Below are positions 4,995 to 59,640 of a DNA stretch of 64,000 nucleotides, one piece after another. This DNA comes from Patescibacteria group bacterium. Lineage in GTDB: Bacteria; Patescibacteriota; Patescibacteriia; XYB2-FULL-38-15. Numbering within the stretch: the stretch's first letter is position 1; each line of letters starts with the position of its first letter. The stretch spans positions 837 to 64,836 of the forward strand of contig JBAZEY010000006.1 in assembly GCA_041653675.1 (NCBI GenBank), read 5' to 3'. Both the position numbers and the translations under genes were made by a program. The notes below the pieces were generated by a model, which made no database searches, was not told the origin of the DNA, and saw only the letters and a list, made by a program, of their open reading frames with translations.

Positions 4995-5050
4995 TACTAA
5001 ATTTTCGCCTAAAAGAAAAACCCCGACAAAAAGTCAGGATTTTTCTTTGG
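4995..5050. terminator. hairpin plus T-run terminator between the DUF262-HNH gene and pgsA
   Basis: CCCCGACAAAAAGTCAGG hairpin with flanking A/T runs and a GC-rich stem just upstream. Confidence 0.35.
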
Positions 5051-5092
5051 CTCCACGCTCCGAGCAAACTGCCCCGCCGCCTAAAATTATTC

Positions 5093-6262
5093 TTACCGAT
5101 TTCCTTTCGCTCGATTGTGTGTCTTGCACAACATCTGACAGTTTTTGGCTGCTGTTTTGCCACCTTTGCTCCAAGCCGCGACATGGTCGGCATCCATCTC
5201 GTTCAAATTCCAAATCTTTTCCTTGTTGGCATCGTGTCCAACGGCACAAAGCGGGCAGTTTGATTTTTCTTTCTTTTCAGCCGCAGCGGTCTGTGTTGCA
5301 TACACAGTTTTCTTTGTCGCTTCATCAAAAATTCTGACTTCAAGTAATTTCGTATCAGTGGAATCACCAAGAATATACTCAAAAATTCCTCTACGATTTT
5401 TTACATACGGATCCGCATAAAGTTTATGAACTTCCGCCGACACTTTGGCAGGATTATACGCTTTCTTGTGATATGTTTCGTAAAGCCGTCCCCACGGAAG
5501 CCCGCACATTTCGCTTTCTACGTCAGTAAATACGCTAGATACCCAATCAATGACGGTGTTAAAATATTTTTTCAACTCATCAATATTTTTGTCTTTGCGA
5601 TGTTTGCTCATATAATCGCCAATATTGTCTTTGCTTACCCAATCAAGAGCACATTCCAAAAATTCCTGCCGGTTAGCGCTGCCGGATACATACGCGCTCC
5701 ATTTTTGGATATTGGCGTTTTGGCTATTGCTGAATTCCTCTTTACCGAGTGTCACAAATGGTCCGGAATAAACCGCATTGAGCAATTCCTGATTATTAAG
5801 CGGAACACCGGCAATATTTATTGTTTTAAACCATTCTTTTATCTCGCTTTCTTCACCTTTACATTCATAAATAGTTAGTGTTGTATTCAATATTTTAGAT
5901 TGCTTATTTTTTGCAAGACCTGAAAAATATTGCTCCATACCATTTTCGTCTTTGATGGCGAATTTGTCATTCACAAAACGTCCAACGCTAGTGATGCGCT
6001 GTTGCCCGTCCAAAACTTCCAGATTGTTTTCAGATACCTTATTAAAATAAATCAAACCAATCGGATACCCCTTGAGAATCGAATCAATAACAGCAACCTC
6101 TCTTTTTCCACCATCGGAGGCATAGATATAGTTACGCTGATATTCCGGCTGAATAGTGAGCTTGCCGGACAATCCGAATAGTCCCTTGCCTTCAAGTTCG
6201 TTATAGACAAACCCATCGCAAATATCTTTGACAGTAATGTTGATCTTTAAAGCTGTATTCAT
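5093..6262 (-). CDS. DUF262 (ParB/Srx-like, DGQQR motif) N-terminal domain fused to a canonical HNH endonuclease; GmrSD-like type IV restriction candidate
   Basis: N-terminal ...[12 protein letters not shown] is the DUF262 signature. The C-terminus CPLCAVGHD...[12 protein letters not shown]...[15 protein letters not shown] is a CxxC...DH...N...CxxH-N HNH motif. The start overlaps the Dam gene by 4 nt. Confidence 0.75.
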
Positions 6263-7110
6263 ATTGTTATTAAATCAAAATTTATATTTTTAAGTTTAGA
6301 ATCAAAAAACAAAATTTCTTTACCTTTTTTAACACAAAAAGCTGTATAAATTAAATTAAATTCAAAACTATTCTTTACAAATTTATATAAATTTTTGATT
6401 TTTGAAGTATTATCATATGAAACTATCCAGTGAATTGTTTTTATTTTTTTAATTTCTTGCGATACTTTTTCATGATCTTCACTACTGTAAGAATTTTTGT
6501 AAAGACTTGGGCCTTTTAAATAATATGGCGGGTCAAAATAAAAAATAGTTTGCTGATTTTTAGATTCATCTTTAATTTTTTCAATCAGCTCAATGGCGTC
6601 TAAATTGAATAATTGAATTTGCTTTTTAAATTTTGCTATTTCCCTTATTCTTTTAATTAACTCCTGTTTCTTAAAACGACAATCCATTTTATAATTTCCA
6701 TCTTGCTTAATTCCTCCTATCAACCCGCCATCAATAATTCCGGACATGTTAACTCTATTAAGGAAAAAAGTAGAAAAGCCGAGCTGGATTAAGGATGAAT
6801 ATTTTTTTGTTTTTTGAATTGCCTTTGCCTTTCTCCAAGTTTCAACATTTATTTCAACATCTTCAATCATCTTACACAATTTATTTGTATGGTTTAAAAC
6901 AGAATACCAGAAAGCATAAATAGAGCGATCGTAATCATTTATAGTAATACTATCTACTTTTCCTTCTAATAATAAATACAAAGCCACAGATGCGCCGCCA
7001 GCATATGGCTCTACATAATGACTATTAATATTATTATCAACACAAATTTGAGCAATAAATTTTGCCAGCTTATTTTTTCCGCCTGGATATCTTAACGGTG
7101 AGTAGAACAT
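6259..7110 (-). CDS. DNA N6-adenine methyltransferase, Dam/D12 class
   Basis: N-terminal RYPGGK SAM-binding motif ([11 protein letters not shown]) and catalytic DPPY (FYFDPPYY). Confidence 0.85.
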
Positions 7111-7112
7111 AT

Positions 7113-8393
7113 TTATTCTTTTTTAGTTTTAAAATAAGTTTCTAAAATATCTCCCGCAACATATGACATTTTCAACACGTCCTGTTTCGAAACACTTATA
7201 TTGCCGTGAGCATATTTTCCAAGCAGTGCCTCAAACTCAAACCTTTTGTTTAAAAAATCTGAAGTAATACTCAAATAGTTTACAACTTCTTTATCTTTGC
7301 ATTCTTTTTGAAATAATTTAATAAAACTCAAATAGGGATTCTCTTGATTTGCATTATCGGTATCTCCTTGACTTCTGTAATAAATTCTAGAAGCAACATC
7401 CAATATTAACCTCGTAGACATTCCTACAATTAACAAAATATTCTCATCATCCGTTCCTTTTTTATAAACTTTATCAACTGCCAAATACAAATCATTTACT
7501 GGACCCTGTTCTAATTGCAAAACTCTGCCAAAAAGAATATCTTTCTTCTTTGTTGCTGGAGTTTTTTGAGGTTTTATCAATTTTTCAGCTTGTTTTTTAC
7601 TAATTGATATTTCTTCAAAAACACTATTTTCTGGGTTCTTCAGTATTTCATCAATAGATTTATCTTTGTTAATTATTGTTTTTAGTTTTCCTCTGTTATT
7701 TCGAGTAGATATATCACCTTTTTGTAAAGCATCCTGTGTTGCCTCAAAAATTTTAATGAGCTGTCCATCTGAATATTTACTATAAAGTTTGCCTTCCTTC
7801 AGATCTATTCCGATATCTTTAAGATTTTTTTCATTTAAAACCTCTTCTTTCACAAATCTTTTGTTTAAAGTTTTGTTTCCTTTTAAAAAACCCGTTTGAT
7901 CATTAATGGACACAAAAATACTTTTTGGTTTATTTTTAAAATGTAACAAAAAGTAGTCTCTTTCGAGTTCTCCCCACGATCCATTATCAATATGTTTCCT
8001 TTCAATACTCGTAACAGCAGTATTTTCATCACAAACATTACACGGAAGAGTGGTTTGTTCTCTCAATAATTTTGGCTCAAGTTCTCTGAATAACTGCCCC
8101 ACATACTTGGAATACTTACTATCATCTTGTATTATTTTTAGCAAAGCAACTCTTCTGTTTCCATCATAAACTACATACTTATCATCTTTTTTGACGACTA
8201 TGGGTAACTCTGAATAATCGTAATATTCGCCCATTTTTTGTACTAACTTTTTTATATTCCATTTATTATCCGAGTCTTGGATAATACGATCAATGATTTC
8301 TTCATCGATTTTTTTAGCATCAATTGGATCTCTTGGGTTTTCCGTCCAGAGATGTAAATTTTTTATTGGGATGTTTAGAATTTCTTGTTTCAT
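7113..8393 (-). CDS. ParB-like nuclease-domain (ParB-N/sulfiredoxin fold) protein, function unknown
   Basis: N-terminal ...VYDGNRRVALLKI matches the ParB-N GxxR motif. The ~300-aa C-terminal region has no recognisable motif. It is tightly packed between two MTase genes. Confidence 0.6.
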   Translation of the reverse strand: MKQEILNIPIKNLHLWTENPRDPIDAKKIDEEIIDRIIQDSDNKWNIKKLVQKMGEYYDYSELPIVVKKDDKYVVYDGNRRVALLKIIQDDSKYSKYVGQLFRELEPKLLREQTTLPCNVCDENTAVTSIERKHIDNGSWGELERDYFLLHFKNKPKSIFVSINDQTGFLKGNKTLNKRFVKEEVLNEKNLKDIGIDLKEGKLYSKYSDGQLIKIFEATQDALQKGDISTRNNRGKLKTIINKDKSIDEILKNPENSVFEEISISKKQAEKLIKPQKTPATKKKDILFGRVLQLEQGPVNDLYLAVDKVYKKGTDDENILLIVGMSTRLILDVASRIYYRSQGDTDNANQENPYLSFIKLFQKECKDKEVVNYLSITSDFLNKRFEFEALLGKYAHGNISVSKQDVLKMSYVAGDILETYFKTKKE

Positions 8394-8403
8394 AATCTCA
8401 AAA

Positions 8404-9519
8404 TTATTTTTTCTTATGTCTTATAAGTATTCGGGTATAGAGTCTTTCGTTGTTTACATAACCCCTATCTAACTTACCTGTCCATTTAGGATTAACCAAT
8501 TTAGGTAATAAACCCTCTTTGATATTGTAATCACTTCCTAATATCTCAAACTGGTCCGGATTATATTTATCCAGAAAACTGCTCGGCACCCCCATTGCGC
8601 CACTATAATCGCTTGGGATGGAATCAGTAAACGGCACCTCTATAGCATTGTAATTGTCATATTTATCATATGTTTTTTTACCTTTAATTTCTTTGTGTTT
8701 GCTGTATTTCAAATTTTCTTCCATTGTCATAAGCGGCAATGGTTGGTGACGACGTCCGTGGTCAAGATTTGTCAACCAAACGGCAGGCACATTTTTCATA
8801 TTGACACCATCAATCACCTTATCGACATCACCATCATCCATCGTTACGAACCATAATCCGCCAGACCATCCTGTTTTTCCTGACCACATTTTATTGGCTT
8901 TAATCAACGGAAAAATTTCCTTGGATGTTACGTTATTTTTATTGCCAATAATCACAAACTTTTTATTATAATCAAAAAGTTGTTTAACATATACGAGAAA
9001 CAAACTGAACGGCGGATTTGTTACCACAATGTCGGATTGTTTAAGTAGATTTATACATTCATCACTGCGAAAATCGCCGTCGCCGTCTAGTGGCGCCCAT
9101 TCGTTTTGTTTGTTTGCTTTTAACTGCTTGGCAATATCCTTTAAGTTGAATTCGCCATCGCCATCTATGTCATGCACTTCGTTAATAATAAATTTGTTAG
9201 CGGTTACTTTCGGACGGCCTTTTGATTTCGTGAGAGTTTTGTCATCGCCATACAATGGTAGTTCCAAATTGGCAACGGGCGAGGGTTTGTAGCTCGTAGT
9301 GATAAGCCGTTTCAATCCAATCTTGTTAAAATTGAGCACGAAATAGCGAAAGAAATTACTCTCGAACGGATCGTCGCAGTTGCAATATACTACTTTGCCG
9401 CGAAAGACATCGGGATTAAAATCTAGATACGCCTGAATTTCTTTTTGAATATCGCCATACTGAGTATAAAACTCATCATTTTTCGCTCTTTTTGCGTTTG
9501 TAAGATTTTTGTTTGCCAT
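8404..9519 (-). CDS. adenine-specific DNA methyltransferase, EcoRI-methylase family
   Basis: N-terminal NDEFYTQYGDIQKEI...VYCNCDDPFESNF and catalytic NPPF (VVTNPPFSLF). It carries an insert with two DxDGDG loops. Confidence 0.75.
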   Translation of the reverse strand: MANKNLTNAKRAKNDEFYTQYGDIQKEIQAYLDFNPDVFRGKVVYCNCDDPFESNFFRYFVLNFNKIGLKRLITTSYKPSPVANLELPLYGDDKTLTKSKGRPKVTANKFIINEVHDIDGDGEFNLKDIAKQLKANKQNEWAPLDGDGDFRSDECINLLKQSDIVVTNPPFSLFLVYVKQLFDYNKKFVIIGNKNNVTSKEIFPLIKANKMWSGKTGWSGGLWFVTMDDGDVDKVIDGVNMKNVPAVWLTNLDHGRRHQPLPLMTMEENLKYSKHKEIKGKKTYDKYDNYNAIEVPFTDSIPSDYSGAMGVPSSFLDKYNPDQFEILGSDYNIKEGLLPKLVNPKWTGKLDRGYVNNERLYTRILIRHKKK

Positions 9520-9687
9520 ATTTTATTTCAATAAATCGTCGAGCGAAACGCCGAGCGCATTGACGATTTTGTGAGACGTTTGATTAAATGCATCTTCCCT
9601 TAATTTTCCCGCAAAAGAGACGAATTGTCAATTTACTCTACATTCCGTCTTTTTGAAACAAGGTCGCTATGTTATAATTGAAATGAT

Positions 9688-9900
9688 ATGAAATTAACCA
9701 ATGACAGCTATACAATTTTAATTGGCACCAAAAATTTCACTGAACGTTATTATCGCGACAAAGAGGGATGGGTGAAGATATCAGCACGCGGTAAAATCTT
9801 CCGTATGACTGCCGAACAAGTTTTAAACCATCTCTTACCAGCACTATCTGGAATTAAACCAAACCTCACAACAAAAGTGACCCACAATAAAGGAGAGTAG
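9688..9900 (+). CDS. hypothetical small protein (70 aa), divergent from the MTase operon
   Basis: Preceded by TTGAAA-N14-TGtTATAAT. There is no recognisable domain. Confidence 0.3.
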   Translation: MKLTNDSYTILIGTKNFTERYYRDKEGWVKISARGKIFRMTAEQVLNHLLPALSGIKPNLTTKVTHNKGE

Positions 9901-9959
9901 AATCTATCACCCCATAAACACAAAAACAAAATACCCAACTTGCGTTGGATATTTTGTTT

Positions 9960-9982
9960 TGGCTCGGGAGGTGGGATTCGAA
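9960..9982 (-). repeat. direct repeat of the tRNA-Asn 3' end (23 nt, identical), att-like
   Basis: tggctcgggaggtgggattcgaa is identical to 10086-10108. It lies 103 bp from the intact tRNA in the same orientation. Confidence 0.8.
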
Positions 9983-10085
9983 GGCTCCTCGGTGCGGATT
10001 CTGCCGCAACGACCTGGCGGAGTGTGGGTTCTTTCCGAACCCCAAACAAAATAAAAAACCCAACGCAAGGTTGGGTTCTTTATTT

Positions 10086-10160
10086 TGGCTCGGGAGGTGG
10101 GATTCGAACCCACGACCAACGCGTTAACAGCGCGCTGCTCTACCACTGAGCTACCCCCGA
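10086..10160 (-). tRNA. tRNA-Asn (GTT)
   Basis: Reverse complement folds as a cloverleaf. The 7-bp acceptor stem has one G.U pair, the D-arm is GCTC/GAGC, the anticodon stem is GCGCG/CGCGT with loop CTGTTAA, the T-arm is GTGGG-TTCGAAT-CCCAC, and the 3' end is GCCA. Confidence 0.9.
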
Positions 10161-10202: not shown

Positions 10203-11435
10203 TCAATAATCCCTTAATTTTTCAATACCCTTGAACCCTTGCACTTTTTCCAAAGCTTTTGCTTCAATTTGCCGAATGCGTTCGCGGGTTACGCCAAATT
10301 CCTCGCCAACTTCTTCCAAAGTATGCGAAACGCCGTCGGAAAGGCCAAAACGCATTTCCAAAATTTTCTGTTCGCGAGGCAGGAGGTCCTTAATTGCTTC
10401 TTTAACATATTCCCGCAAAAGCTGCAATGCCGCCGCGCGATCCGGAGAAACGTTTTTGAAATCTTCTATAAAATCTTCGAGCACGCTATCTTCATCTTCA
10501 TCGCCGACCGAAGTATCAAGCGAAACCGTGTCTTGGGAAATCTGAATTAAATTTCTAATTTTTTCCACATCCTCGCCCATCTCCGAAGCAATCTCTTCGG
10601 GCAAGGGTTCGCGCCCCAAATCCTGAATCAATTGCCTCGCCACTTGCTGATAACGGTTAATAGTTTCCACCATATGCACCGGAATTCTGATAGTGCGAGA
10701 TTGATCCGCAAGGGCACGCGTCACGGCCTGACGAATCCACCAAGTTGCGTAAGTTGAAAATTTATATCCTTTACTCGGATCAAATTTTTCCACGGCGCGC
10801 ATCAAACCAATATTCCCCTCTTGAATCAAATCTGCCAAAGATAAATTTTTTCCCACGAATTTTTTTGCAATAGAAACAACAAGGCGCAAATTGGCAACCA
10901 TTAATCTCTGCGACGCTTCCTGGTCTCCCTGATCCTTGCGGCGGGCCAAAGCCATTTCTTCTTCAGTCGTTAAAAGCGGCACTTTTCCGATTTCACGAAG
11001 ATACATCTGAATGGAATCGGTAGAAATATCGCCCAAGTCCAATCGCTTCTTTTCTTTACTGACGCCAATATCGGCCAAAAGTTTTTTTCTCTCTTCAGTG
11101 CGCCCCAAAATATCAGATTTAACTTCCACCACAGAAATTCCGGCCTCATCAATTTTATCTAAAAATTCTTCGTATTTTTTTATGTAATTTTCCAAATCGG
11201 CGAAAGTGAAAAGGATTTCCGAATCAGTCAAAAAACCTCTCATGCGGCCCTTGTCCAAGAGAGTTTTTATCGTTTCATCGCTTGGCGGAAGAATTTTTGG
11301 TGCGACGACTCTGGCGACTTTTTTCGCCTTAATTTTCTTTCCACCTCGTTTGGCTATCTTTTTCTTCCCGCCCGATTTTTTAATTTTTTTCACGCCGCCC
11401 TTCTTCTTCGGCCGACGCACTTTTTTAGTTTTCAT
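10203..11435 (-). CDS. rpoD: RNA polymerase sigma-70 factor RpoD
   Basis: Regions 2-4 are present ([34 protein letters not shown] region 4.2). The N-terminal 40 aa are Lys-rich. Confidence 0.9.
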
Positions 11436-25219: not shown

Positions 25220-25308
25220 AAAAACAAGTTAAATTTTAACTTTATTATATCTTATCATAAATTAGCATAAATAAAAATAACGCCAAAATGGCGCGTAATT
25301 TAAACAAA

Positions 25309-25326
25309 CGGAGAGGGCGAGATTCG
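25309..25326 (-). repeat. degenerate copy of the tRNA-Ser 3' end
   Basis: cggagagggCgaGattcg compared with the tRNA's cggagagggAggGattcg (25427-25444), in the same orientation. Confidence 0.6.
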
Positions 25327-25426
25327 GGCTCCTCGGTGCAAAGTCGGCCGCAACGGGCTAGCGGTGTGAGTTCTCATCAAAACCCTCAATTTTTCAAATC
25401 TGCCACAAAAGGCAAATTTGAGAAAA

Positions 25427-25511
25427 CGGAGAGGGAGGGATTCGAACCCTCGATACCTTGCGGTATGCACGCTTTCCAAGCGTGTGCACTAGGCCACTAT
25501 GCGACCTCTCC
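25427..25511 (-). tRNA. tRNA-Ser (GGA)
   Basis: Class II tRNA with acceptor GGAGAGG/CCTCTCC and anticodon stem CACGC/GCGTG with loop TTGGAAA. The long variable arm is ATACC-GCAA-GGTAT and the T-arm is GAGGG-TTCGAAT-CCCTC. CCA is not encoded. Confidence 0.85.
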
Positions 25512-25550
25512 ATTTTTTAAATTCTATACTAAACTGATCTAAAAATCAAA

Positions 25551-56371: not shown

Positions 56372-56545
56372 AATAACAGATGCCCTCGAAAGAAGGCGGA
56401 ACACATTTTTTAGGTGGGTTCCGCTAAGCTCGTATTTTTTCTTGCTGTCACCTTGCGGTGATTTAGGAAAATTTACGAGCCACCGTCCGAAGGACTCGGA
56501 CGATTTCCGGCATACTTTTGGAAGCCGGCTTATTTTGGAAGGTGC
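56372..56545 (-). repeat. leader repeat copy 3 (distal ~175 bp, near-identical)
   Basis: Matches 57727-57900 and 59469-59640 almost base for base. Confidence 0.85.
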
Positions 56546-56547
56546 TA

Positions 56548-57627
56548 CTACGGGCAGTCCTCGTCGACCAGTCCGTCGCAGTTGTCGTCGAGGCCGTTGC
56601 CACACGTGTCGATGGAACCCGGAATGGACCAGATGGTTCCGGGTGGCGACGAATCGCAGGCCAGCTGGAACATCTCACCAGGCGCGTTGCAGGTGATGAC
56701 GCCGAACTCGGTGCAAAGACCTTCGTCGGAGAAGATGACGCAGGTACGACCGAGATCCTCTCGGTAGTCCTCGTCCGTTTCCCCATCGCAGTCGTTGTCG
56801 ATCTCGTCGCAGAGTTCCTGGGCGTCCGGATTGATAGCCGCGTCGCTATCGTCGCAGTCTTCCGCATTGGTAACGTACCCAGGAGGCATATCCTCGGTTG
56901 GACAGTGTGACGAGGTAGCGGTGGGGGTGTCGAATCCGAAGCCGTCGCCGTCTCGATCAAAGTAGATCGGAAAGCGATCGATGGCATCCGCGTCCGTCTC
57001 GCCGTCGCAGTCGTTGTCGAGGCCGTCGCAGATCTCGCCAACGCCGGGATGGACAGCCGGATTGTGATCGTCGCAGTCGTAGTACTCACCCGGCGAAGAA
57101 CCACAGAGCTGATGACCATCGACGTCATCATCACGTCCGACAAGCAAACAGTGATTCATCACACAACGGGAGATGATGCACTCACTGTCGCGAAAACCGC
57201 AGTCATCGGAAGTGACACACTCTGGCGGCGCGCAGGCGGGATCATCGGACGGAACGTGGCGACAGATGCCGCCAACCTCGCAGAGGTCGACCGTGCAGTC
57301 GTCGCCGTCGTCGCAGTCCGCACTCGTCTCACATTCGGTAGTCGGGAGACACACGCACATGTCGCCGGAACAAACGCCGGTTGACATGCCTTCTGCCTGG
57401 CACTCGAAAACGCAATCGGTCGGCACGCAGTCGGACGGCGGCTCGCAGGCCGGATTGTCGGAGGGAACCATGACGCAGGTGCGGTCAATGCCGCAGATGT
57501 CCACCGTGCAGGGGTCGCCGTCGGCGCAGTCCGCGTCCGAAACGCACTCCTGACTCAGATCGAGGAACGTGTTGTTGCAACCGATCGCGAACAGAACCAC
57601 GGACAGAACCATCAACGTATTCTTCAT
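56548..57627 (-). CDS. secreted Cys/Asp-rich lipoprotein with MopE/TSP3-like DxDxDGxxDC metal(Ca)-binding repeats
   Basis: Start reassigned to MKNTLMVLSVVLFAIGC (SD AAGGAAGGAAAG). It has repeats CDGLDNDCDGETD, CDEIDNDCDGETDED, CGNGLDDNCDGLVDEDC and ~14% Cys. The ORF-track N-terminus (MFRLLSRV...) is the upstream leader read in frame. Confidence 0.65.
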   Translation of the reverse strand: MKNTLMVLSVVLFAIGCNNTFLDLSQECVSDADCADGDPCTVDICGIDRTCVMVPSDNPACEPPSDCVPTDCVFECQAEGMSTGVCSGDMCVCLPTTECETSADCDDGDDCTVDLCEVGGICRHVPSDDPACAPPECVTSDDCGFRDSECIISRCVMNHCLLVGRDDDVDGHQLCGSSPGEYYDCDDHNPAVHPGVGEICDGLDNDCDGETDADAIDRFPIYFDRDGDGFGFDTPTATSSHCPTEDMPPGYVTNAEDCDDSDAAINPDAQELCDEIDNDCDGETDEDYREDLGRTCVIFSDEGLCTEFGVITCNAPGEMFQLACDSSPPGTIWSIPGSIDTCGNGLDDNCDGLVDEDCP

Positions 57628-57900
57628 CTTCTTCTCTCTTTCCTTCCTTGTTGTAAAGAACTTTGTCCCGGACACGCGAAACATCGCGGCCGAGAAACTT
57701 TCCTCTCTTCGAATTTGCCACGCAACGCGTGGTACCCTCGAAAGAAGGCGGAACACATTTTTTAGGTGGGTTCCGCTAAGCTCGTATTTTTTCTTGCTGT
57801 CACCTTGCGGTGATTTAGGAAAATTTACGAGCCACCGTCCGAAGGACTCGGACGATTTCCGGCATACTTTTGGAAGCCGGCTTGTTTTTGGAAGGAACTA
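57565..57900 (-). repeat. leader repeat copy 1 (~335 bp, identical to 59307..59640), comprising the first codons plus 5' UTR/promoter
   Basis: An exact duplicate covering the signal-peptide codons, SD and ~270 bp upstream with several hairpins (TCACC-GCAA-GGTGA, CCACGC-GTT-GCGTGG, TCCGA-GTCCT-TCGGA). Confidence 0.85.
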
Positions 57901-59370
57901 CTCGGCGATCACGAGCTTCGTGGAGGCGATCATGGGGAGACCCGACAGGAAACAGATCTCATGGCCGACGTCAATGTCGTCCGCGCTCATGATCCCGAAC
58001 TGGAAGATCTCTCCCAATTCGGGATGGTCGGCTCCGAACCCGCTCAGAGAAAGCTCGACGTACGAGATTTCGACTTCCGGCGGCACCGCGATGTTTTCGA
58101 AGACAATCTGATCGCCGGGACTCCCTTCTCCACTGGGTACGATCTTCTCCTTCCGGATCGAAACCCATTCGCCCGAGAACGGAACCCTCCCATGCAGTGT
58201 CAGCCACGCATCCAAGCTGGCATCACCCTGGAGAACCGTGAAGGCAATCCGAGGGATCACGCCTGTTTCAATCTGAACCATGAAGGCGAACTTCGCCACC
58301 GAAACCTCGTAAGTGCTGCTGTCCATCGGTGCGCACCAAGTGTCCTCGGCACACTCGCTCGGTACCACCTGTCCGTACGTAACCCAGTTGACCCACGGAA
58401 ACACGGGCGGACCACTGATGAAGAGCGAGCTGCAGAAATCCGCGGGGTAACGTGGTTCAGTGACGGTTGAAGAACAGGAATGGAAAGGATGGCTGGTGCA
58501 CGCGGGAGCTGGTGGGCAAACGGAATCTTCGTCCGTCTCGCCGTCGCAGTCGTCGTCCGCGCTGTTGCAGACCTCGGTAGTCGGGATGCAGGCAGGCCCA
58601 CAGTCCTCGTCGACCGCCGTGTCGCAATTGTCATCTCGACCGTTGCCGCAGACCTCGTCGGCGCCGGGATGAACATCCGGATCGTGATCGTCGCAATCGT
58701 AGCGTTCGCCTTCCGGCAGACCGCCGCAGAGCGACCGACCGTCGCCATCGTCATCACGTTCGAAAGCGAAGCACGAATTCGCCAAGCAGCGGAAGACGAG
58801 ACACTCGCCGTCGAAGCGAGCGCAATCGGCATCCGTGCGGCACTCGGGTGGTGTCTCACAGGCCGGATGACCGGCGCAACCAGAGTCGGCACAGTCGGCA
58901 CGACCGTCGCGATCGTTGTCTGCGCCATCCGTACACTCGCCGGGCTCGTCACCCTCGTAGTCGTCGACTTCCACATCCGCATCAGCGTCCGCATCGGCAT
59001 CGACGTCCGCGTCAGCATCCGAAGGCGTCTCGCAGGCCGGATGACCGGCGCAACCAGAGTCGGCGCAGTCGAACTGACCGTCACGGTCATTGTCCACGCC
59101 ATCCGTGCATTCTCCGGGCTCGTCGCCCTCGTAGTCGTCGGTACTTGCATCCGCGTCGGCGTCAGCATCGGCATCCCGGTCGTCCACCGGCTCGCAAGCC
59201 GGGTTGTCGGAGGGAACCATGACGCAGGTGCGGTCAATGCCGCAGATGTCCACCGTGCAGGGGTCGCCGTCGGCGCAATCCGTGTCCGACTGGCACTCGC
59301 TGTCGAGGAACGTGTTGTTGCAACCGATCGCGAACAGAACCACGGACAGAACCATCAACGTATTCTTCAT
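57898..59370 (-). CDS. secreted Cys/Asp-rich lipoprotein paralogue (~490 aa) with duplicated GECTDGxDNDRDGxxDCADSGCAGHPACETP modules and a C-terminal ~170-aa beta-rich domain
   Basis: Same signal, lipobox and first 25 residues as 56548..57627. It has poly-(DA) linkers, an internal exact module duplication and SD AAGGAAGGAAAG. Confidence 0.65.
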   Translation of the reverse strand: MKNTLMVLSVVLFAIGCNNTFLDSECQSDTDCADGDPCTVDICGIDRTCVMVPSDNPACEPVDDRDADADADADASTDDYEGDEPGECTDGVDNDRDGQFDCADSGCAGHPACETPSDADADVDADADADADVEVDDYEGDEPGECTDGADNDRDGRADCADSGCAGHPACETPPECRTDADCARFDGECLVFRCLANSCFAFERDDDGDGRSLCGGLPEGERYDCDDHDPDVHPGADEVCGNGRDDNCDTAVDEDCGPACIPTTEVCNSADDDCDGETDEDSVCPPAPACTSHPFHSCSSTVTEPRYPADFCSSLFISGPPVFPWVNWVTYGQVVPSECAEDTWCAPMDSSTYEVSVAKFAFMVQIETGVIPRIAFTVLQGDASLDAWLTLHGRVPFSGEWVSIRKEKIVPSGEGSPGDQIVFENIAVPPEVEISYVELSLSGFGADHPELGEIFQFGIMSADDIDVGHEICFLSGLPMIASTKLVIAE

Positions 59371-59640
59371 CTTCTTCTCTCTTTCCTTCCTTGTTGTAAA
59401 GAACTTTGTCCCGGACACGCGAAACATCGCGGCCGAGAAACTTTCCTCTCTTCGAATTTGCCACGCAACGCGTGGTACCCTCGAAAGAAGGCGGAACACA
59501 TTTTTTAGGTGGGTTCCGCTAAGCTCGTATTTTTTCTTGCTGTCACCTTGCGGTGATTTAGGAAAATTTACGAGCCACCGTCCGAAGGACTCGGACGATT
59601 TCCGGCATACTTTTGGAAGCCGGCTTGTTTTTGGAAGGGA
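59307..59640 (-). repeat. leader repeat copy 2
   Basis: Identical to 57565-57900. Confidence 0.85.

Follow-up and report, generated by a model that had tools for sequence, protein, structure and literature searches.

Small units bounded by tRNA 3'-end copies behind the tRNA-Asn and tRNA-Ser genes of Patescibacteria

Units behind the two tRNA genes and their surroundings

The window, that is, the whole stretch of 64,000 nt of contig JBAZEY010000006.1 analysed here, is placed in Patescibacteria by RpoD homologues and contains only two intact tRNA genes according to ARAGORN and Rfam, each of which has a unit of hairpins, a module and a partial copy of the tRNA 3' end behind it. The gene for tRNA-Asn (GTT), at 10086..10160 on the minus strand (ARAGORN; Rfam RF00005, 72.8 bits), is intact, encodes its CCA and lies downstream of rpoD (11435..10203, with Pfam sigma-70 regions), the sense strand of the whole unit being the minus strand. 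Its last 23 nt (core copy 1, 10086..10108, minus) comprise the T-loop, the 3' strand of the T-stem, the 3' strand of the acceptor stem, the discriminator and the CCA. This 23-mer, TTCGAATCCCACCTCCCGAGCCA, occurs exactly twice in the window, at 10108..10086 and at 9982..9960, with no occurrence expected from 100 shuffles. In the second occurrence (core copy 2, 9960..9982, minus), identity with tRNA-Asn starts exactly at T54 and is maintained at 23 of 23 positions through the CCA. The starts of both copies are 126 nt apart and 103 nt lie between them, in agreement with the initial annotation, which had described an exact 23-nt copy separated from the tRNA end by about 100 bp.

The order tRNA-Asn, hairpin with T-run, module, 3'-end copy and second hairpin with T-run, as originally described, is found in full on the minus strand. 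Hairpin T1 (10047..10085, minus, 39 nt), detected as an inverted repeat (I3, 25 nt, 84%), by folding and by a terminator scan, is bordered by an A-run and a T-run and is thus usable as a terminator in both directions; its palindrome reaches, imperfectly, into the tRNA-Asn 3' end and the start of the module. The module (9983..10046, minus; GC 0.62), which belongs to the B type defined below, is recovered by nhmmer with E=5e-17 against the family HMM and in alignments A1 and A3. A 49-nt module, GAACCC...GGAGCC, had been delimited at first; it corresponds to 10031..9983, the only place in the window where its 38-nt core is matched, and by homology the module measures 64 nt (10046..9983). It folds into a 5' hairpin, GGGTTC-GGAAA-GAACCC, and an imperfect 3' hairpin with the end GCACCGAGGAGCC. 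Hairpin T2 (9921..9959, minus), a terminator with 17 pairs and a T-run, was found at 9959..9921, just beyond the span annotated earlier. It is homologous to T1, to which it is related as a direct (D1, 76%) and as an inverted (I1, 73%) repeat, and its loop (GCAA) is the reverse complement of the T1 loop (CTTGC), which is consistent with the inversion of a small palindrome. Further on, GGGGTGATAGATTC (9900..9913, minus) represents the first 14 nt of a second module, of the A type by comparison with the A modules of L086, L122 and L115; it overlaps the stop codon of a 70-aa ORF at 9688..9900(+) and is cut by the island described below inside an inverted T-loop-like TTCGAA.

The segment behind tRNA-Asn is not called as a tRNA by ARAGORN or by Rfam even at E<=10, as the initial annotation had anticipated; the same holds for 9960..10046 and 25309..25387 (ARAGORN; Rfam RF00005, E<=10). 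The unit is not an assembly artefact, since an independent ENA assembly, L001, is identical across it. A protein-coding reading was discarded, because the ORFs that cross the region overlap the tRNA and are spurious.

The second unit lies behind tRNA-Ser (GGA; 25427..25512, minus; ARAGORN and Rfam), which is intact and has no encoded CCA. It came to light when all tRNAs of the fetched loci were screened for a partial copy of their 3' end downstream, and consists of a hairpin (25388..25426, minus), a second, 61-nt copy of the module family that also ends in GCACCGAGGAGCC (25327..25387, minus; GC 0.61; nhmmer E=4.5e-15; alignment A3), an 18-nt copy of the tRNA-Ser 3' end, CGAATCTCGCCCTCTCCG (25309..25326, minus), and a closing terminator hairpin (25269..25308, minus), for which the terminator scan flags 25294..25280. 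The copy starts inside the T-loop, two bases further into it than the tRNA-Asn copy does at T54. Since the module also precedes a tRNA-Ser 3'-end copy, it is not specific to tRNA-Asn; nhmmer with the family HMM found no copies elsewhere in the 64 kb. The module is conserved, as had been claimed, both in relatives and at a second locus of the window. It had also been reasoned that a module absent elsewhere and a one-off duplication would reduce the finding to a decayed integration scar, an argument that is inapplicable because the module was found behind tRNA-Ser and in relatives.

The tRNA-Ser unit is present in L125 and L127 as well, and its 18-nt copy is identical in the three genomes. However, the tRNA-Ser of the window has undergone two compensatory T-stem pair changes (25441-25460) with respect to L125/L127, from GCGAG/CTCGC to GAGGG/CCCTC, so that the tRNA now carries CCCTC, whereas the adjacent copy keeps the relatives' allele CTCGC. 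The tRNA changed after the copy was made and, therefore, the copy is a fossil of an older allele. Module and copy together are 84-96% identical between genomes, versus 67-74% for the adjacent non-coding DNA (Fisher p = 0.003, 8e-6 and 0.04).

Other partial copies were encountered near these tRNA genes. In the Saccharibacteria locus L014 (4739-4985, minus), tRNA-Ser is followed by a hairpin, GGACGGATTCGAAC, which is an inverted T-arm-like piece, about 85 nt of unrelated sequence, an 18-nt 3'-end copy including CCA and a second hairpin, and in L095/L113 a 15-nt copy lies 178 nt behind tRNA-Asn. Upstream of tRNA-Ser, L086 (330-2000) and L126 (3740-5400) contain small GIY-YIG ORFs directly after tRNA-Ser-like 5'-half repeats, which read ...GGTCGCATAGTGGCCTAGT...TTGGAAAGCGT and continue beyond the junction with AATATG...; L086 has three or four of these repeats and a run of N, and in L126 a variable-arm fragment is found in addition, together with an older 3'-end copy that follows a tRNA-Ser whose acceptor differs. 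The arrangement resembles an element of the homing-endonuclease type with the tRNA-Ser anticodon region as its target.

A variable island (5093..9900; delimited by Pfam, PHROGs and the comparison with L093) lies distal to the last core behind tRNA-Asn. It is about 4.8 kb long and of low GC, and encodes the 70-aa ORF, an EcoRI-type methyltransferase, a 426-aa protein of unknown function, a D12 methyltransferase and a GmrSD/HNH protein; 5093-9519 corresponds to a defence-type island, with GC down to 0.295 at 6-8 kb. The 426-aa protein, adjacent to the EcoRI-family methyltransferase, was not matched by Pfam and is similar at its N-terminus to PHROGs of unknown function; it could possibly be the endonuclease. 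This island is missing from L093, L123 and L116. The homology of the island-free L093 with the window breaks off where the tRNA ends (10086) and is taken up again at 5053, within GGAGCCA (5054..5048), a tRNA 3'-end remnant that is followed by a terminator at the far island junction (5011..5054, minus). Housekeeping genes restart there with a CDP-alcohol phosphatidyltransferase gene, called pgsA here. Elsewhere in the window, whose GC is 43%, the stretch 56400-59500 reaches a GC of 0.56-0.60 and contains the genes of two large proteins whose cysteine-rich metal-binding repeats are of the MopE type.

The tRNA-Asn locus in related genomes

Orthologous loci were fetched through the RpoD proteins of relatives and by a metagenome scan for the 23-mer. 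The GTDB species representatives were of little use for synteny, their closest RpoD being only 64-67% identical, and close loci were reached through the protein database in metagenome relatives with RpoD 87-96% identical. In these related Patescibacteria, tRNA-Asn is followed by zero, one or two units: a single one is found in the window, L093, L118, L123, L115 and L121, and two units, hence three cores, in L086 and L122. An empty site exists in L116/L117, where the pgsA start codon follows tRNA-Asn after 17 nt, without hairpin, module or encoded CCA. Units are missing, with no visible replacement, from L116, L082 and L084, and are present without an island in L093 and L123. Turnover is recent, taking place between strains that are about 99% identical. 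L121 and L122 share 98.9-99.5% identity over 16 kb and yet have one and two units, respectively, and their hairpins, which do not differ in length, are swapped; the blocks that align between the two strains stop inside the unit region, and their A-type modules diverge upstream of a common CGAACCCAC, that is, between TT and CGAA of the inverted T-loop-like sequence.

Islands stand behind the last core in the window, L086, L101, L115, L118 and L121/L122, all six of them different and, in every case, distal to the units. Their contents include restriction-modification systems, a phage-type repressor accompanied by an ImmA-like protease, and a phage protein resembling Bro-N. The interval between tRNA-Asn and pgsA is, across the genomes compared, an integration hotspot that is occupied by recombinase elements or by restriction-modification and phage-like islands, or else is left as an empty site. 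Moreover, tRNA-Asn genes with a unit or a recombinase element behind them always have an encoded CCA and a hairpin, whereas the empty-site gene of L116 (9270-9365) has neither, which hints that an element may have supplied the present 3' end of the occupied tRNA-Asn genes. In L100 (reverse complement, 1690-2260), the place of the core behind the module is taken by a promoter-like TTGACA...TACATT together with a short ORF (about 75 aa) of high GC; this insertion of about 540 bp sits at the module/core junction, and a shortened TTCGGAGCCA then precedes the pgsA terminator.

Two types of modules can be distinguished. Type B modules, of 63-70 nt, are present in the window, L086, L118, L123, L093 and L122, and type A modules, of 49-53 nt, in L086, L115, L121 and L122; both align over their first ~45 nt (alignment A1). 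Their GC content is 0.60-0.69, versus 0.17-0.33 in the flanks, and either hairpin type (AAA... or TGA...) occurs with either module type, which makes four combinations. The A module is a significantly similar inverted copy of the 3' half of tRNA-Asn, from the anticodon loop to the T arm, whose score is reached by none of 2000 shuffles, and includes a 13-nt exact reverse-complement match to the T-stem and T-loop; the inverted tRNA signal attains a Z of at least 4 in six loci. The B module of the window, compared with the tRNA, is not significantly similar in either orientation (p~0.13-0.16). Two further derivations were considered and set aside: the B module as two older, decayed direct copies of the tRNA 3' end, plausible by eye but with p~0.14 for the window module, and the B and tRNA-Ser modules as an inverted tRNA-Ser copy whose long variable arm would give the extra 19 nt, which was not significant.

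The cores, by contrast with the modules, do not diverge from the tRNA. The ten extra tRNA-Asn cores of eight genomes all begin at the same identity boundary, T54, and each is identical to the resident tRNA-Asn (10/10; 230 nt, 0 differences) across three acceptor-stem alleles, ...CTCCCGAGCCA, ...CCCCGGAGCCA and ...CCTCGGAGCCA. Between genomes, B modules differ by 16-38%, the 3' end of rpoD by 9-24% and the rpoD-tRNA spacer by 12-22%, the latter counted in alignable pairs only, so that the modules vary to a similar or greater extent than either. Under vertical inheritance of the units and a core drift equal to that of the modules (at least 8% per lineage), the probability of no core change would be about 1e-8 by our own arithmetic, and therefore the cores must be homogenised with the tRNA or often re-created.

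Some relatives carry a large serine recombinase gene directly behind tRNA-Asn, on the opposite strand (L082/L083 and L084). The recombinase of L082 has 569 aa with Resolvase, Recombinase and Zn_ribbon_recom domains, and homologous serine recombinases stand next to a tRNA-Asn core in many metagenome contigs (among the loci are L084, L094/L099, L103, L108 and L112). In contexts that resemble attP and attR, these recombinase elements contain a stretch of ~45 nt that matches tRNA-Asn exactly, starting at the anticodon loop and running through the 3' end. In L082 (9294-11036), and also in L084, L094/L099, L098 and L112, the recombinase gene ends inside the tRNA-Asn 3' end, on the opposite strand; the ~45-nt copy is preceded by GATGATATAGTCCAC and a hairpin, and L098 has two such copies, 91 nt apart. 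Since the arm is different and the identity block is of ~45 nt, any link between these recombinases and the units is putative.

In the window itself, no integrase lies between the two tRNA-Asn copies, which enclose only the hairpin and the 64-nt module; annotation with Pfam and PHROGs detected no recombinase in the island, and across the 64 kb none emerged from a crude motif scan or from tblastn with the serine recombinase of the relatives as query. A full-length parent element with the ends of the unit was not found. Core and module had no match in IMG/VR (two core alleles, three module patterns) or, by blastn, in INPHARED and PLSDB, and an attP form, with the module joined to the core, was not found in these three databases, the attP-like contigs belonging to the other arm type.

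Origin of the units

The units can be regarded, with moderate confidence, as minimal relics that site-specific recombination in the T-loop left behind, bounded by att sites, devoid of an integrase and reshuffled through their own repeats. The 23-nt repeat would then mark the distal boundary of a cargo-less cassette of about 126 bp inserted behind tRNA-Asn and composed of the terminator hairpin, the 64-nt module and the tRNA copy from the first T-loop base to CCA. The hairpin would be an element-borne terminator that now ends the repaired tRNA, on the attL side, the module would be the element-side arm beside attR, and the distal copy, together with the hairpin after it, would represent the displaced original tRNA 3' end. 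The cargo between both ends could have been lost or never present, giving a mini-element like a very small cis-mobilizable element, and the repeated cores would be substrates for recombination through which units and hairpins are gained, lost and rearranged while the copies stay the same as the tRNA, with the islands sitting behind the last copy. The T-loop is reportedly an established sublocation for tRNA-targeting integrases. Moreover, serine recombinases such as those of Bxb1 and phiC31 lose directionality when their crossover dinucleotide is palindromic, and it can be speculated that the inverted tRNA fragment arose from polarity-free recombination at the palindromic TTCGAA or, equally, from inversions across hairpins. 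This account postulates a recombinase origin of the units, a particular enzyme and a larger parent element.

The initial annotation had compared the two copies with the attL and attR sites of tRNA-targeting integrases. The comparison is favoured by the 3'-end repeat that starts at the T-loop, the empty site and the recombinase elements at the same tRNA in relatives, but the copies flank no integrase element and bound instead a 103-bp cargo-less unit in arrays of one or two. The relic reading has against it the missing integrase, the missing full-length element, the lack of matches in the viral and plasmid databases and the longer identity block and different arm of the relatives' recombinase elements. 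Moreover, recombination at the cores alone is insufficient, because all four combinations of hairpin and module exist, and the distal islands would not be expected were new elements always to enter at the intact tRNA. It is on account of the missing integrase and parent, the reassortment, the distal islands and the signs of constraint that a functional element and a palindrome-driven origin retain some probability. The view that the copy could be a decayed scar of no current function, also raised initially, is too simple, since the cores track three tRNA alleles, the units turn over and the tRNA-Ser unit is conserved above its flanks.

That the units are selected functional elements seems unlikely. 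They could be landing pads, acting as secondary att sites, or a read-through RNA with the 5' end of the module paired with the acceptor strand and a GCCA tail. Selection would fit the agreement of all ten extra cores with three tRNA alleles despite the divergence of the modules, the conservation of the tRNA-Ser module and core above their flanks, the GC of 0.60-0.69 kept in an AT-rich context and the position of six out of six different islands behind the last core. High GC and, at tRNA-Ser, conservation above the neighbouring non-coding sequence suggest constraint and not a dead scar, and leave room for a functional role. However, the tRNA-Ser copy of the window did not track the T-stem change of its tRNA, and L116, L082 and L084 do without units and have no visible replacement for them.

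As for an RNA, every unit could form an acceptor-like pairing of 6-7 bp that joins the module 5' end to the core, as read from the sequences, but it would be automatic, because the module 5' end resembles the inverted tRNA 3' end. The predicted hairpins of the window keep 82% of their pairs in nine homologues, although double, compensatory changes affect 0 of 18 pairs and shuffles equal the observed values; with 6-9 homologues, neither these counts nor RNAalifold, whose covariation term is positive in a fold with the module 5' end paired with the core, revealed covariation. No promoter-like site was found before either module, that is, between the first hairpin and the module, and each module stands behind a strong terminator hairpin. 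Rfam 15 offered no family for the segment, only hairpin-like matches to miRNA models far below threshold under permissive settings. The evidence does not support an RNA gene, though nine sequences are too few to exclude one. Two related ideas were dropped: a covariation of the module 5' end with the acceptor allele, whose pattern needs register shifts and wobble pairs and for which no claim is made, and TTTAGTATA... as a recurrent promoter motif, which has two occurrences in the window, too few for a promoter model.

An integrase-free origin driven by palindromes is quite improbable. Template switching or fold-back at the terminator hairpin, or break repair at TTCGAA, would copy part of the tRNA 3' end first in inverted and then in direct orientation, which agrees with the inverted tRNA-Asn 3' half in the A module, its 13-nt exact match and the signal in six loci. 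In addition, at both tRNA-Asn and tRNA-Ser one long imperfect palindrome spans the tRNA 3' end, the hairpin and the beginning of the module, the T2 loop is inverted with respect to that of T1, several breakpoints coincide with the TT/CGAA junction or lie next to it and the architecture behind the tRNA-Ser of Saccharibacteria L014 is similar. This route, nevertheless, leaves unexplained the common segment of about 40 nt ending in GCACCGAGGAGCC at two different tRNAs and meets a B module in the window that is not significantly tRNA-like, whereas an identity boundary that does not vary between the two module families or among the genomes is more readily explained by a defined recombination site than by error-prone copying. 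A decayed tandem duplicate of tRNA-Asn and its terminator, of which only the 3' end survives, would match the period of 126 nt, equal to tRNA (75) plus spacer (51), and the homology of the T1 and T2 hairpins, but was rejected as highly improbable, since identity falls sharply from 100% to noise at T54, with the module unaligned to the first 52 nt of the tRNA, the A-type tRNA fragment is inverted and not direct, and the module also precedes the tRNA-Ser 3' copy, which largely refutes it.

Relation to known systems and significance

The observation holds and goes beyond an isolated scar, yet it belongs to a known kind of phenomenon. Integrating elements are said to leave attR-type partial tRNA genes behind, and partial tRNA genes at island borders are a signature of tRNA-integrating elements (PMC9897764). 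The units resemble such fragments in the direct 3'-end repeat that starts at the T-loop, in the empty site of a relative and in the variable DNA beside the repeat; they differ in the 103 bp between copies, in the absence of integrase and cargo, in their arrays of one or two units, in the use of the same arm at two tRNAs and in the inverted tRNA fragment inside the unit.

The closest published parallel is the array of ssrA islands of Dehalococcoides, where tandem units behind this single-copy, tRNA-like gene are bounded by ~20-bp repeats of the gene 3' end, with a conserved motif upstream of each repeat, insertion takes place in the T-loop, a large serine recombinase lies beside attL on the reverse strand and some islands have no integration module (PMC3146451). 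Both systems share tandem repeat-bounded units, a motif before the repeat and the T-loop, and here a serine recombinase is present in the relatives L082 and L084. However, the units measure about 110-130 bp and not kilobases, they involve tRNA-Asn and tRNA-Ser instead of tmRNA, and the serine-recombinase elements of the relatives carry a different arm and the ~45-nt identity block.

Other systems share fewer features with the units. The CIMEs of streptococcal ICE families are flanked by att sites and lack recombination and transfer genes, the known ones being kilobases long and gene-bearing. The concept has also been used for the Dehalococcoides islands (PMC3146451). The units share with CIMEs the att-type repeats, the missing integrase and the tandem accretion at one site, and they are att-flanked and free of recombination and transfer genes, their mobilization in cis being putative and hinted at, indirectly, only by the one-unit difference between L121 and L122. 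Integron cassette arrays and CALIN likewise consist of short units with imperfect palindromes of ~40-90 nt and no integrase nearby, whereas here the boundary repeat is a tRNA 3' end and there are no cassette ORFs; the attC pattern RYYYAAC...GTTRRRY, tried by eye, fits the T1 and T2 stems of the window and not the hairpins of L086, L093, L115 and L123. The split tRNA 3' halves of Nanoarchaeum and Caldivirga are also free-standing 3' fragments preceded by a GC-rich segment, but in the present case an intact tRNA is adjacent, the break lies at T54 and not at an intron position, there is no matching 5' half and the host is bacterial. It seems rather doubtful that the units form a distinct family of minimal cargo-less cassettes that would use the T-loop site of any tRNA and be kept as a safe att site seeding defence islands, or as an RNA mimicking the tRNA 3' end.

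Little is known about how the tiny genomes of the candidate phyla radiation gain and lose DNA. The locus presents single-copy tRNA genes as active recombination hotspots behind which restriction-modification and phage-like islands gather and, in addition to classical kilobase islands, a recombination footprint of very small, recurrent cassettes with fast turnover. If the extra 3' ends were landing pads, the build-up of islands without risk to an essential single-copy tRNA would be explained. In practical terms, the repeats carry a risk of mis-annotation as tRNA pseudogenes and break metagenome assemblies. That the repeated core does so is suggested by several contigs whose ends lie inside the tRNA-Asn core or just a few bases away, namely L002 and L090 at their end and L101 and L103 at their start.
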